Source of the DNA: a virus
Taxonomy: Duplodnaviria; Heunggongvirae; Uroviricota; Caudoviricetes
Direction: 5' to 3' (one strand)
Length of the DNA stretch: 43,465 bases
Virus record (IMG/VR): IMGVR_UViG_2563366823_000003
The stretch's first letter is position 1, and the number at the start of each line of letters is the position of its first letter. Below the pieces are notes generated by a model. The model saw only the letters and a list, made by a program, of their open reading frames with translations. It was not told the DNA's origin and ran no database searches. A program made the position numbers and the translations under genes. This document shows, one piece after another, positions 2,740 to 35,238 of this stretch.

Positions 2740-3836
2740 TATGCGAGCCTCACAATATAGTTAAATGCGATGTTTTTGACGGTGTTTTCCGCGTTACCAG
2801 CAGCGTTAACGGTGATGGTGTGTCCATGTGAACCAATCGCAACAGAGTGCGTATGTGCACCAATAGCGACAGTATGTGTATGCGCCCCAGCACTTGCTGC
2901 AGTACCTGATACTGAGTGGGTATGCGCGCCAGCAGAATTCGTTGCACCTAAGTGAGTTTGAGCAGAGTTCGACGAAGCTACTCTACCGGAGCTAACGTTA
3001 GCATTATCCCCCTGAGATATCGGATGCGTATGTGCACCTGCTGAAGCTGCTGTTCCGCTAACGCTATGGGTATGCGCACCAGTGTTATTCGTAGATTTAG
3101 TTCCATAATCAAACGATGATGTGTTTTTTGTCCCTAAATCTGTATTGGAAGCACTGGCGCTGTGGGTGTGCGATTTAATGCCGTCCTGTTCCTGGCTAAG
3201 AACATCACGTCCACTTGCAGGCTTACCTTTGATTGTCCAGCCACGCATATCAGGGATCACGCCTGACGGATAAGCGGCTGCAAGTTTCGGGTATGCAGAC
3301 TTGTCAAAAGTCTGTCCCTGCATCAGAGCATAACCAGATGGAACTGTATCTGATGGCCACGGGATCGGGGCACCTACAGGAAAGGTCGAATTATTTTCCA
3401 AACCAAGATATTTAAGGACATCAGCAACAGAGCTTTTTGCCAAAATATCTCGCCCAACCTGTGTCAGGTCAGCCAAATTAGCGGTATCTTGATTGGTAAA
3501 ATACGGTAATTTGTTTTCGGATGCTGAAAGATTAGCAAGTGCGGTAAGTATGGCATTAATTCTCTGATAGTTCTTATCTAATGCAGACGACATTTTTGCG
3601 ATAAATCCGGCCTGATCGCCATCGTCCTGTACATCCAGTCCACTTTCATTTGCTGTATATTGTGCCATTGCAGATGCAATAAAGCTGGCCTGCCGAATAA
3701 CCTTATTGACTTGCGCACTGGATGCTTTCCCTGCTGTAAATCCGGATAAAAGCGCAGGTAATGCTTCCCATTCCTCCTGCGACATAACATTGGCATTCCG
3801 ATCAGTTGCAAACGCTTTAAAGTCATTTTTCGCCAT
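2739..3836 (-). CDS. side tail fibre protein with His-rich C-terminal repeats (GAHTHS x5)
   Basis: 365-aa ORF immediately upstream of tfa; repeated [15 protein letters not shown] units; start placed at ATG 3836 overlapping the upstream stop (TGATG). Confidence 0.8.
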
Positions 3837-31651: not shown

Positions 31652-32464
31652 TCACTTTTCCGACACAATACGACTGGAGGAATCGACAATCTGTCGGACA
31701 ATATCCCGGTGCTTGTTCAGCTCCCGCAGCGCGGCGCAGACTCGCTCCCACTTCTGGACATGATTTTTCGCCCGACGAAGTTCGCGGTTTGCCATTTGCA
31801 GCGATGGTAAAATCAGGTCATCCGCTTGCGTTTCGGTGAACGATGGCAGCGACTGCACAATGTCCGCCACAGTTTCTGTTTTAATATCTTCCTGTGTTGC
31901 AGCTTCCTGTACTGGTAACGCAACACATGCAGGCTGAGGAAAGGCTTTACCATCAGTTTCCGCTACCGATGCCGCTTTCGGCTCTGCTGGTAAATTATCG
32001 CCCGGCATGCAGTAACGAAATTTACCGTTCTGATTAACGCGAATCAGACGACCTTTGCTGATTGCCATTGCCAGCGTTGAAGCCACTTTGCGGGATGTTG
32101 TACCGAACAGCGTAGCCAGTTCATCCGCCGTTTGTGGTCCGCGTTGTTCAATCGTCGCGGTTAAATCGCACTCTGAGATTTTCGCTACTGTCGCCGTGGT
32201 GGTTTCTTCCGGCTGTTCTTCTGGCGCTGGCTGTTCCTGCTGAACGTTGTTATCAGCCACACGCCAGGTGTATACGCTTTTATCAACGCAGCCAGCCTTT
32301 TTCAGTTCCCACAGCTCGTTCAGTACTTCTTCACGACTGATATCAAGTCGCGCAGCCAGCTCTACCGACGTGGCTTTTCCCATCGCTTTCAGTGCGTCAA
32401 AAACAGTCTCCATTAAAATTTCCTCCCGGTAAAAATCACTTCGCAATTCCTTGCTGGACGACAT
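31652..32464 (-). CDS. hypothetical protein with two winged-helix-like segments (270 aa)
   Basis: Track ORF; start uncertain (internal Met 18 METVFDALK... would remove the overlap with the DnaC-like gene). Confidence 0.4.
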
Positions 32465-33182
32465 TCGGACGCCAGCTCTCCCAGTTAAAATTCACCCATC
32501 GCCCGCCGTTCATGGTCATGCGATCCATAATCCGCTCGCCGAGCAATGTTTTCATGGCCTCATAGTTCAGGTTTGTCAGCATCCCCACGCTGCGCATCGA
32601 CGCTGTCCGGCGATCAACAATCTGGTGCAGCACCACCTGCTCGTTTTTCGTCTCGCGCTGAATGCCAATTTCATCAAGAACCAGCAGATCCACTTCGCAC
32701 AGCTCCCGCAAAAATTTTTCGCCTGACTGCCCGTCGTCATAGCTGGCGTGCAGGGCGCTCATAACATCAGCCACGGTAACCACAATCACTGTCTGACCGT
32801 CTTTCAGCAGGCGATTCCCGATAGCTGCCGCTAAGTGATTCTTCCCGGTACCAGGTTTTCCGCTGAACGCAAAATTTGTACACCCGGTCATCAGTTCATC
32901 GGCGATGGATTTCGCCTGGCTTAACGCGTACCGCTGGCCGTCGTTCTGCACCTGGTAATTCGCAAACGAGCATTTACGGTGCAACGGCTGGATGCCTGAA
33001 CGATTCAGAATTTTTTCCACCCGCAACTGGCGATTCAGGCGGTTGATCTCCTCGCTACGTTTCTGGCCTTCAGCAAGTTGCCACTCGCGCCACTCCGCTA
33101 CCGTTCTGAATGGGGCGGTTACATGTGGCGGGGTCAGTCGGCGGATGCGTTCCAGAACGCCGCCTGTCGCAATATTTTTCAT
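32436..33182 (-). CDS. DnaC-like helicase loader (IstB-like AAA+ ATPase)
   Basis: Walker [16 protein letters not shown] and Walker B LLVLDEIG; downstream of the O-like initiator. Confidence 0.8.
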
Positions 33183-33188
33183 GGTCCA

Positions 33189-33983
33189 TTACCCCCTGAA
33201 GCCTGGCGGGATCGCACTGTCCGGCAACGAGACAGTGTTAACCTGTCGGAGCAACGTCTCAGGCCGAACACCTTTCGGCGCGAACAGGCCCTGGTATTCA
33301 TTGGCGATGCTGTGTCGAATCACCTGCTCAGGTGTAAAACCCTGCTGACGGAATTTTTCCAGCTCCCGTATCGCCCCGTTAGCGCCCTGCTCCGTTCGAA
33401 TCGGTTTTCGCAATGCCTGCCTGAACTTAACCCACTCATGCCAGAGTGTTTCCGGCAACCAGTCAGGCAGCTCGATAGCCTCCGGCTCGAATTTTTTAGA
33501 CGCTCGTTTTTGGCGAGGGGGATTTAGGGGGAGATCAGTATTTATATCTTCCTCTTCCTCTTCCTCTTCCTCTGGTAACGCTTTTTGATCCGTTTGTGTA
33601 ACGCTGCCAGCGTTACCTTTTCGTTTCAGTTCGCGTATTTTTGTAACTCGCTCGTTTGTAACCGCCCGTTTTTTAGAGCTTTTTCCGTTATGACGTTCAA
33701 AGTTAGGTAGAGAAAGCCCACCGTCATTTTCGACCAGCCATCCAACCTGAATTAACGCATCAGCAAAACCAGCCATAAAAGTGATGCGGTCTATTGCACT
33801 TTTTGTAACGCCGCGAGCGTTACAATCTGCATTACCGTCTATCATTTGTTGATCCGCCCATGCCCAGAAGCGAATAACCTTCCCTAATGCGGCATCTGGA
33901 TCAATATTCAGAATCTCAGCAAGCCTGAATATTTCCGGCTTATCCGGCGTAATAACCTCGAGCTTTATCCAGTTTGAAGCCAT
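33189..33983 (-). CDS. replication initiator, O-like (YdaU/DUF1376-like)
   Basis: 264 aa with central poly-Glu linker, upstream of the DnaC-like gene; carries inverted-repeat motifs. Confidence 0.6.
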   Translation of the reverse strand: MASNWIKLEVITPDKPEIFRLAEILNIDPDAALGKVIRFWAWADQQMIDGNADCNARGVTKSAIDRITFMAGFADALIQVGWLVENDGGLSLPNFERHNGKSSKKRAVTNERVTKIRELKRKGNAGSVTQTDQKALPEEEEEEEEDINTDLPLNPPRQKRASKKFEPEAIELPDWLPETLWHEWVKFRQALRKPIRTEQGANGAIRELEKFRQQGFTPEQVIRHSIANEYQGLFAPKGVRPETLLRQVNTVSLPDSAIPPGFRG

Positions 33984-34060
33984 TTGTTTTCACCTTGTAA
34001 CGCTCGCAGCGTTACATTTAACTGATACCGAACAAAACAATCCGGCACGATTAATTTCAA

Positions 34061-34483
34061 TCAATGCACTACGACAGAATCGCCGGGCGACCCACCACCG
34101 CTGAAATGTGCTTTCCGGTAAACGGCCTGGACTGCATCATCATGCGCATCAATTGCCGTACTCAATGCTTCCTGCGCCGCCAGTAATGCACGGCGTTCCA
34201 GGGTATCGAAGATACAGAGTCGGTGACGCAGCTCGCGCGGAAGAATTGCCAGAACCGCAGGGATCAGTTTCTGAATTTTTTCCCTTTGCGCTTTCGTTTC
34301 ACCTTTCAACCAACGGTGATAGATATTCTGCTGATTGTTCCAGTCCTTGCCTGGTACAAGGGGCAATTCGCCGCCCCCCTGGCGCAGATATTCTTCAGTA
34401 ATTGCGTTAGCGACCCACGCCTGCCCTTTTTCGGCTGCCAGGGCCAACAACACTGATTCGATATGCTCATGCCTGATTTTCAT
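34061..34483 (-). CDS. YdaT-like protein (CII-position regulator)
   Basis: 140-aa ORF immediately downstream of the cro-like gene, same size and position as Rac ydaT (recalled). Confidence 0.5.
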   Translation of the reverse strand: MKIRHEHIESVLLALAAEKGQAWVANAITEEYLRQGGGELPLVPGKDWNNQQNIYHRWLKGETKAQREKIQKLIPAVLAILPRELRHRLCIFDTLERRALLAAQEALSTAIDAHDDAVQAVYRKAHFSGGGSPGDSVVVH

Positions 34484-34722
34484 GAATCAACCGCTCCTAT
34501 GCTGTTTTCGCTATGCTTACCGTCTGGGGGGAATACATCGTCAAGTCCACAATGAGCGCCAAGCCGATTAAGGGTAGAAACAATTTTTCTGCACTCCTCT
34601 AGCCCAGGGGTACGAAAATTTGCTTCGTAATTTGCCAGTCGGCTTTGTATCCACCCTAACTGAACAGCGAGTTGTCTTTGAGACAACCCAAGCTGTTTTC
34701 GATATGTTGAAATTTTGTTCAT
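34480..34722 (-). CDS. Cro/YdaS-like HTH regulator
   Basis: 80 aa with HTH LGLSQRQLAVQLGWIQSRLANYE; divergent from the repressor gene. Confidence 0.6.
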   Translation of the reverse strand: MNKISTYRKQLGLSQRQLAVQLGWIQSRLANYEANFRTPGLEECRKIVSTLNRLGAHCGLDDVFPPDGKHSENSIGAVDS

Positions 34723-34818: not shown

Positions 34819-35238
34819 ATGGAAAAAGAAAACGAAAAAATTGCCGCTAGTAGGCTCAATGACAAAATTGCAATGCGTCTTAAAGAGCGCAGGCAGAAGC
34901 TTGGTTTATCTCAAGGAAAACTTGCTGAAATCTGCGGATGGACGCAATCGCGTATAGGTAACTATGAGGCGGGCAGCAGAAATGTTGGAGTGCATGACGC
35001 TGTCGTATTGGGAAAGGCTCTTGGCATATCTCCTCCTGAGCTCCTCTTTGGAGAACAGGAATCTTCTGAATTGTGGTTAAATGAATCCCAACGAAAACTT
35101 CTTGAGTTGTTTAACCAGCTACCGGGCTCAGAACAACAACGAATGATTGAGCTATTTGAAGTCCGGCTAAAAGAAATCGATGAGTATGTAGAAAAATATT
35201 TGAGAGGCAGGCTTAAAGATAATCCCCCACCGGAGTAA
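34819..35238 (+). CDS. prophage repressor, RacR-like (XRE-family HTH)
   Basis: 139 aa with HTH LGLSQGKLAEICGWTQSRIGNYE; no peptidase domain; divergent from cro-like gene. Confidence 0.7.
   Translation: MEKENEKIAASRLNDKIAMRLKERRQKLGLSQGKLAEICGWTQSRIGNYEAGSRNVGVHDAVVLGKALGISPPELLFGEQESSELWLNESQRKLLELFNQLPGSEQQRMIELFEVRLKEIDEYVEKYLRGRLKDNPPPE

Follow-up and report, generated by a model that had tools for sequence, protein, structure and literature searches.

We examined a set of inverted repeats in and just upstream of a replication initiator gene carried by a virus of the Caudoviricetes (IMG/VR record IMGVR_UViG_2563366823_000003), using the whole 43,465-nucleotide stretch of its DNA, hereafter called the window. 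The gene (33189-33983, minus strand) encodes a 264-residue protein with a predicted winged-helix N-domain, a linker, a helical C-domain and a DnaT-like C-terminal tail, and it occupies the ydaU slot in a gene order that matches the Rac-type ydaS-ydaT-ydaU-ydaV module. A pattern search of the window allowing up to 2 mismatches returned exactly three matches to GTAACGCNNNNNGCGTTAC, all of them perfect. Inverted repeat 1 (IR-1; 33997-34015, GTAACGCT-CGC-AGCGTTAC) lies 14 nt 5' of the initiator ATG (33981-33983) and directly adjoins the Shine-Dalgarno (SD) sequence AAGGTGA of the gene (33990-33996, minus strand). IR-2 (33805-33823, GTAACGC-CGCGA-GCGTTAC) spans codons 54-60 (C-N-A-R-G-V-T) in a loop of the N-domain, and IR-3 (33598-33616, GTAACGCT-GCC-AGCGTTAC) spans codons 123-129 (G-N-A-G-S-V-T) in the linker; both therefore read N-A-x-x-V-T in the same frame. 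The repeats are 207 and 192 bp apart, and the arms of IR-1 and IR-3 extend beyond the common 7 nt to an 8-N3-8 arrangement. The preliminary description of this DNA had listed three copies, two within the gene and one just upstream of its start, and had regarded only the first (IR-3) as perfect. The number and placement were confirmed and all three copies proved to be perfect in their 7-nt arms; the coordinates given for IR-3 and IR-1 were exact, whereas the middle copy had been placed 9 nt too high, at 33814-33832.

The palindromes are accompanied by single half sites. An exact GTAACGC (GCGTTAC in the gene sense) is found at 33575-33581, where it is read in a different frame (A-L-P), and degenerate copies are found at 33643-33649 (GTAACTC), 33658-33664 (GTAACCG) and 33829-33835 (GCATTAC, or GTAATGC in the gene sense, at +148 relative to the ATG); the first three of these account for the extra half sites anticipated at about 33574-33581 and 33642-33665. 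The abundance of these sequences is far above chance. GTAACGC-N5-GCGTTAC occurs 3 times in the window against 0.11 expected, a count reached in none of 100 shuffles. Between 33500 and 34030 there are 10 half sites with at most 1 mismatch, compared to 1.8 expected from the rest of the window (Poisson p = 2e-5), and 9 GTAAC/GTTAC pentamers, compared to 1.2 expected (p = 4e-6). Such a surplus of one short repeated sequence within the initiator gene is a feature of lambda-type origins.

Homologous loci were obtained by a protein homology search, which gave more than 1200 homologues, followed by retrieval of the contigs encoding the matched proteins. A scan of genome contigs with the one protein as query found no relative; a viral scan with the alignment returned only loci that were 95-100% identical, which are informative on fixed spacing and not on divergence; and distant relatives came from scans with diverged members and from tblastn on phage records. 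Homologues with 54-81% protein identity were recovered from Salmonella, Klebsiella, Yersinia, Enterobacter, Serratia and Citrobacter, and each of them has exactly three GTAAC-N9-GTTAC palindromes, located at -33/-44, +148/+160 and +367 to +424 relative to the ATG. Their arms are essentially invariant and their spacers all different, further viral contigs are alike, and about 83 close relatives keep the exact palindrome spacing. The upstream intergenic DNA could not be aligned between genera except for IR-1 and the SD sequence, and 10 diverged loci have kept IR-1, either at -33/-34 or at -43/-44. IR-2 is at +160, or shifted to +148, in all close and mid-distance homologues. The shift is seen in the Klebsiella/Enterobacter-type genes, where the full palindrome is displaced by 12 nt because the +148 half site gained a right arm within an 11-codon insertion and the right arm of the +160 copy was lost; additional GTAACGC half sites are present in inserted linker codons of these genes. 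The lone half sites are conserved as well: most other genera have an exact GTAACGC in place of the one at 33829-33835, 5 of 13 homologues have an exact GCGTTAC in place of the one at 33643-33649, and, for the one at 33575, GCGTTACCAGAGGAAGAG occurs in 10 of 13 diverged genes.

A codon alignment of 13 genes, with a median nucleotide identity of 0.61, allowed coding constraint to be separated from constraint on the DNA itself. Third-codon positions are invariant at 6 of 8 sites in the arms, compared to 14 of 135 elsewhere in the gene (Fisher p = 8e-5) and 0 of 4 in the spacers. The residue preceding the Asn varies (Cys, Gly or Ser), yet its codon always ends in GT. These alignments show that the palindromes are conserved beyond coding constraint, that is, by selection at the level of the DNA.

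The Rac prophage of E. coli K-12 carries a different version of the gene at the same place. Its order of genes (racR-like, ydaS, ydaT, ydaU, ydaV, ydaW) is that of the window and its helicase loader is near-identical, but K-12 YdaU (285 residues) and the window protein have only residues 141-264 in common, with 81% identity by BLASTP. Their N-domains showed no homology by BLASTP, by hhalign (probability 0.1%) or by Pfam: K-12 YdaU matches PF07120 (DUF1376) at 2.7e-26, whereas the window protein does not match it. The homology between the window gene and K-12 ydaU starts at an AT-rich/GATC-CCCCC junction. The palindromes follow the N-domain, as the K-12 Rac locus contains no match to them even at 3 mismatches. 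What K-12 ydaU has instead are same-strand CAGATGTTCAA repeats, two of them in the part coding for the N-domain and a cluster immediately ahead of the linker and the AT-rich/GATC junction; in MG1655 Rac (locus L088, 3764-4063) these are at 3764, 3849, 4008, 4041 and 4053, with a weaker copy at about 3975. These direct repeats probably function as initiator sites in the K-12 allele, and they are candidates for oriJ, the active origin reported for Rac (PMC3945230). By analogy, the exchange between the window and K-12 fits the pattern of lambdoid O genes, in which iterons and N-domain move as one cassette.

We also examined more distant relatives of the N-domain, which is present in phages of Salmonella, Klebsiella, Xanthomonas, Ralstonia, Vibrio and Pseudomonas, including epsilon15, SPN1S and TL-2011b. 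A tblastn search with the N-domain matched 59 phage records, and six of these, together with viral contigs from the earlier scans, were inspected for palindromes. The relatives have the same 5-N9-5 geometry in the same places, one palindrome in the part coding for the N-domain and one in the part coding for the linker. GTAACGC/GCGTTAC arms are found in TL-2011b (+148 and +357), Xanthomonas phage CP2 (+148) and Ralstonia phage QkW1 (+151), and three TAACG-N7-CGTTA sites in the viral contig L098. The arms are GTCAC/GTGAC in a Vibrio phage (+151 and +358) and in contig L097 (+332 and +377), and GTCCGC/GCGGAC in epsilon15 (+65 and +344) and phiPSA1 (+65 and +365). A palindrome at +330 to +425, with the arms proper to its clade, was present in the linker region of every clade inspected, including epsilon15, phiPSA1 and the Vibrio phage. 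Two or more palindromes with the same arms occurred in at most 2 of 1500 shuffles per locus for the window, TL-2011b, epsilon15, phiPSA1, the Vibrio phage and L097. The GTAAC arms are common to phages of E. coli, Xanthomonas and Ralstonia, and epsilon15 of Salmonella and phiPSA1 of Pseudomonas, which have the same arms, are closer to each other than to any other member of the N-domain alignment. Since arms are shared across hosts within an initiator clade, the sites follow the initiator and not the host. The loop peptide of the Vibrio clade is G-H-A-x-x-V-T rather than G-N-A-x-x-V-T, as read from the aligned sequences a case of the protein having followed the DNA arm.

Pfam assigned the initiator itself to no family, the sole match at E ≤ 10 being a spurious one to TFIIA, and the family is mostly annotated as 'hypothetical' or 'primosomal protein I'; in RefSeq the protein is a 'hypothetical protein' between a 'toxin YdaT family protein' and 'ydaV'. 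PHROG 2509, 'replication initiation protein', matches it from end to end (3.8e-91), the O-like phrog_678 matches residues 77-238, and the match to phrog_4880, 'replisome organizer', is weak. The name 'O-like' that had been given to the gene therefore holds for role and position and not for homology to lambda O. An AlphaFold2 model of the protein (mean predicted local distance difference test score, pLDDT, of 67) is confident for the N-domain (about residues 11-95), with helices at 16-25, 29-48, 61-68 and 73-80 and a beta-hairpin at 84-91, and predicts a winged helix, a DNA-binding fold. The basic/acidic linker at residues 96-161 is modelled as disordered (pLDDT below 50 at 96-117 and 119-161) and is followed by a helical C-domain at about residues 165-230 (helices at 178-227). 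IR-2 encodes a low-confidence loop (residues 53-57), and IR-3 together with three half sites encodes residues 107-137 within the disordered linker, with IR-1 and IR-2 falling outside the linker segment; hence the DNA sites within the gene are placed where the protein tolerates them.

Over approximately its last 30 residues (...VNTVSLPDSAIPPGFRG) the initiator matches the C-terminal end of the primosomal protein DnaT. The tail encoded at 33192-33278 (minus strand; residues 236-264, ...RQVNTVSLPDSAIPPGFRG) closely resembles that of E. coli DnaT (PDB 2ru8), and the epsilon15 homologue has been annotated by HHpred to the same structure. The similarity is confined to the tail, for which the DnaT equivalog model scored 16.1 bits against a cut-off of 201 and PDB DnaT chains gave E values of 0.25-0.77. 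The next gene encodes YdaV (32436-33182, minus strand), a DnaC-like helicase loader (NF009043, 1.2e-153; DnaC equivalog, 2e-91; IstB_IS21/Bac_DnaA; phrog_50), which is presumably the partner of the initiator. Because the tail resembles that of DnaT and the gene is followed by one for a DnaC-like loader, as in dnaT-dnaC, the tail suggests an element that recruits the loader and helicase. The downstream partner varies among loci: the window, L001 and L004 have a DnaC-like one, L002 has a ParB-HTH-like protein of 274 residues (L004 also has such a protein, after the loader), the Yersinia and Serratia loci have DUF3268, and the Citrobacter locus has no loader. Initiators without an adjacent DnaC-like loader may work with the host DnaC.

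The arrangement of sites next to the linker resembles the anatomy of a lambdoid origin. Read along the gene strand, the order is two degenerate half sites, IR-3, a GATC, the exact half site at 33575-33581, a polypurine run immediately following it and an AT-rich stretch with a second GATC. The 26-nt run (33548-33573; (GAAGAG)n on the gene strand, pyrimidines on the plus strand) encodes an acidic EEEEEEEE and is kept in all enterobacterial homologues and in TL-2011b. The AT-rich stretch (33531-33549, with GATC at 33533-33536) is a candidate unwinding element and coincides with the start of homology to K-12 ydaU. The least stable duplex within the gene is at 33531-33578 (z = 2.6 for 20-mers and 2.0 for 40-mers). 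TL-2011b has the same order of half site, palindrome, half site, GAAGAGGAAGA and TATATATAAAA. A 23-bp periodicity of GCGTTAC half sites in the core was considered and dropped, as the spacing in TL-2011b is 12 bp. Likewise, a tandem iteron array of ~22-bp direct repeats does not describe the locus, in which the palindromes are inverted and 207 and 192 bp apart and the half-site spacing in the core varies between homologues.

Two GATC (Dam) sites, at 33533-33536 and 33587-33590, bracket the exact half site and the polypurine run, and most enterobacterial homologues, as well as K-12 ydaU, also contain GATCAAAAAGCGTTACC and the A/T-GATC-CCCCC motif. By analogy with Stx (Shiga toxin) phage ori plasmids (PMC7466680), the bracketing sites may be an input for Dam and SeqA. 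Some initiators (P0022 and about 45 similar E. coli and Salmonella proteins of 374-380 residues) have an insertion of ~115 residues directly after the acidic linker, at the proposed origin core and domain-swap junction (columns 172-305 of alignment A1). The insertion in the 376-residue variants (...RIDIVVTDRNGVRCGIELDRNSPRQKS...) has no Pfam match.

The spacing of the palindromes was also informative. The distance from IR-1 to IR-2 falls into three classes of 182, 192-193 and 203-204 bp (window, L001-L006 and L089-L100), and as these correspond to 17.3, 18.3 and 19.4 turns of the helix, the two sites have the same phase in all three. That the classes are one turn apart may reflect a constraint on phase, for instance through looping or wrapping. 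The spacing from IR-2 to IR-3 is less regular, ranging from 207 to 276 bp. IR-1 is absent where the start of the gene overlaps the preceding gene (epsilon15, phiPSA1, Vibrio and QkW1) and also in TL-2011b, L093 and L101, and it can therefore be regarded as an accessory site of the YdaT-linked enterobacterial clade.

Taken together, these comparisons make it probable that the palindromes are the cognate sites of the winged-helix N-domain of the initiator encoded by the same gene (an initiator of the ydaU-position, DnaT-tailed, PHROG 2509 class), with the linker cluster as the origin core and IR-1 as an auxiliary or autoregulatory site. The preliminary description had offered initiator-binding sites, with an origin inside the initiator gene, or autoregulatory operators as its alternatives. 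The first is strongly supported by the conservation beyond coding constraint, the loss of the sites upon exchange of the N-domain, the co-variation of the arms and the winged-helix model, and the two roles are probably compatible; the cluster near the linker has a lambda-ori-like anatomy and IR-1, abutting the SD sequence, looks like an operator. We infer that an initiator dimer would bind each palindrome, one domain per GTAACGC arm, leaving the G/C-rich spacer unread. The segment 33531-33664 would be the origin core and the counterpart of ori-lambda inside gene O, with IR-3 as its main site. The DnaT-like C-terminal domain of the bound initiator would then bring the YdaV loader and the host DnaB to the neighboring stretch of low duplex stability. 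IR-2 and IR-1, at distances of about 200 and 400 bp, would serve as auxiliary sites, probably aiding a wrapped or looped complex, and at IR-1, flush with the SD sequence, the initiator would probably limit its own expression. Two points qualify this interpretation. The initiator is without homology to lambda O, having no Pfam Phage_rep_O match, and the AT-rich element, although it adjoins the site cluster, is weak, consisting of only about 15-20 bp of A/T plus a polypurine run of 50% GC.

The weakness of the AT-rich element is also a point in favor of the main competing explanation, that the palindromes are purely autoregulatory operators at which the initiator, or an initiator-loader complex, represses its own transcription or translation, the origin lying elsewhere in the prophage. 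IR-1 abuts the SD sequence in every enterobacterial locus, and sites ~200 bp apart in constant helical phase resemble looping operators. However, epsilon15, phiPSA1, the Vibrio phage, QkW1 and TL-2011b have no upstream copy and yet all retain the linker palindrome, and a promoter scan predicted no sigma-70-like site near IR-1. An operator also leaves aside the ori-like combination of half sites, polypurine run and AT-rich stretch in the linker, and the fact that the swap junction is exactly where lambdoid ori/N-domain cassettes exchange. Operators alone are thus unlikely to explain the palindromes. The plasmid records that contain the module number only two, one of them a Mu-like 52-kb element laden with insertion sequences, and have no bearing on autonomous replication.

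It is improbable that a protein other than the initiator binds the sites, be it the CII-like YdaT, a cI/Cro-like regulator or a host factor. To our knowledge, the motif fits none of the recognition sequences of TyrR, PurR, LexA, DnaA or EcoKI/StySPI. YdaT is the most obvious candidate, as it is encoded immediately upstream (34061-34483, minus strand) in all enterobacterial loci, and a sequence resembling its box lies 32 nt from IR-1. However, the YdaT box has been mapped experimentally as TTGATT-N6-AATCAA (PMC9986795, PMC11879457), which differs from GTAACGC-N5-GCGTTAC in both sequence and spacing, and TL-2011b, CP2, QkW1, epsilon15 and phiPSA1 carry the sites without an adjacent YdaT. The immunity regulators vary among loci (HTH_3 or P22_Cro), the pattern search of the window found no palindrome in the cI/cro intergenic region, and the arms track the initiator clade across hosts, as in Salmonella and Pseudomonas. 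Two sequences similar to the YdaT box were noted in the window: CTGATTTTCATGAATCAA at 34473-34490, with 1 mismatch, lies over the ydaT start codon and is in the same place in K-12 Rac, and ACGATTAATTTCAATCAA at 34047-34064, with 2 mismatches, lies at the ydaT stop codon and is the one upstream of IR-1. Through the latter, YdaT could influence ydaU expression or the origin. The remaining genes of the module are a Cro-like helix-turn-helix gene in the ydaS position (34480-34722, minus strand), a DUF1627 (YdaW-like) gene on the minus strand and a divergent cI/RacR-like repressor gene (34819-35238).

A function as RNA hairpins in the ydaS-ydaT-ydaU-ydaV transcript, affecting its stability, processing or translation, is very improbable. 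The three copies could form hairpins of 8-10 bp each (-12.6, -15.9 and -14.2 kcal/mol; z = -1.5, -2.9 and -4.1), the arm changes between clades are compensatory, and IR-1 adjoins the SD sequence. However, within a clade the arms are invariant in sequence, beyond what complementarity alone would ask for, and conservation and enrichment extend to lone half sites, which can form no hairpin and which occur in either orientation and in another reading frame. There was no Rfam match, and the sites vanish when the DNA-binding domain is swapped. Intrinsic terminators were rejected because no copy is followed by a T-run in the gene sense. On the antisense (plus) strand, IR-3 followed by CTTTTCGTTT (33598-33626) scores as a weak intrinsic terminator; this is probably incidental, since Lys codons account for the T-richness, which is conserved only in part.

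Finally, that the palindromes are a by-product of a repeated N-A-x-x-V-T peptide or of chance is scarcely credible, for although the motif is read from IR-2 and IR-3 in one common frame and N51, N55, V128 and T129 are invariant or nearly so in protein alignments, IR-1 is identical and non-coding, the half site at 33575 is in another frame, synonymous positions are frozen, the stretches of protein that hold the motif are a loop of low confidence and a disordered linker, the Vibrio clade changed N to H along with its DNA arm, and shuffle tests of the window and of the relatives' loci exclude chance.

The anatomy of ori-lambda, reportedly described by Tsurimoto and Matsubara in 1981 and by Zahn and Blattner in 1985, is the closest parallel to the proposed origin. 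Common to ori-lambda and the Stx O-some on one side and this locus on the other are dyad sites of ~19 bp inside the initiator's own gene, their location in the segment coding for a flexible linker between a DNA-binding N-domain and a loader-recruiting C-domain, and the exchange of sites and N-domain as one cassette among mosaic relatives; the AT-rich, strand-asymmetric stretch next to the sites has a candidate counterpart here. However, the initiator here is not a homologue of lambda O. The four to six tandem iterons of ori-lambda are replaced by one full palindrome plus half sites at the core and by two more full palindromes located some 200 and 400 bp from it, one of which is outside the gene at the SD sequence. 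In addition, the AT-rich stretch is much shorter, and the partner is a DnaC-type loader, or none, rather than lambda P. In Stx phages, two extra iterons add 13 residues to O (PMC7466680), which parallels the half sites in the inserted linker codons of the Klebsiella/Enterobacter-type genes.

The locus also differs from the other systems to which it can be compared. K-12 Rac is similar in its C-terminal domain and loader and in having repeats inside ydaU before the linker, but it has a DUF1376 N-domain with CAGATGTTCAA direct repeats where the window has palindromes. DnaT resembles the initiator in the tail (...RxVNxVSxPDxxIPPGFRG) and in the neighboring gene for a DnaC-type loader, but it matches in the tail only and has no sequence-specific origin-binding domain. 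In iteron plasmids and P1, the sites of the initiator (RepA in P1) are found at the origin and near its own expression signals and serve autoregulation as well as initiation, and organisers of the SPP1 G38P type have their origin within their own gene. Repeated sites at the origin and at expression signals are likewise proposed here, but those systems have tandem direct repeats at ~22-bp spacing, mostly bound by monomers, as opposed to dispersed perfect palindromes, and there is no sequence homology. DopC of the Cellvibrionales combines an O-like N-domain with a DnaT C-terminal motif and was reported to be without iteron-like sequences (PMC5509034).

A more elaborate model is possible, although we consider it doubtful. 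The phased IR-1, IR-2 and IR-3 might form one looped or wrapped initiator-DNA complex that couples the shut-off of expression at the ribosome-binding site to the firing of the origin 400 bp downstream. In such a model the sites would also have 'written' N-A-x-x-V-T (H-A-x-x-V-T in the Vibrio clade) into protein loops that tolerate them, and protein and site would be a co-evolving pair whose code could be read from the GTAAC, GTCAC and GTCCGC variants.

In the literature consulted, which stopped short of the work on mapping oriJ, we found no description of these palindromes or of an origin for this initiator, and the ydaU and YdaT papers do not mention the palindromes; the oriJ literature concerns the K-12 allele, which has a different N-domain. 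The initiator is by no means rare. Of 5426 complete E. coli genomes, 1544 contain a match to the 1.7-kb region, and in 651 of these the match covers 80% or more of the query. The initiator DNA is 92% identical to the 'ydaU' of a deposited 'phage Rac' fragment. The set of palindromes is most likely, on comparative grounds, a lambda-style origin inside the initiator gene for a widespread and unstudied family of initiators, set apart by dispersed and phased palindromes, a DnaT-like tail and a natural series of specificities that can be read from sequence. The sites would provide a candidate origin for a common lambdoid replicon that is not of the lambda type, together with a natural series of specificity variants of a winged-helix/palindrome pair. 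They also yield a rule for annotation, namely palindromes of 5-N9-5 geometry with the same arms at about +150 and +350-420 of the gene. The origin proposed here would bear on the control of prophage replication and hence on the toxicity and over-replication of cryptic Rac-like elements.

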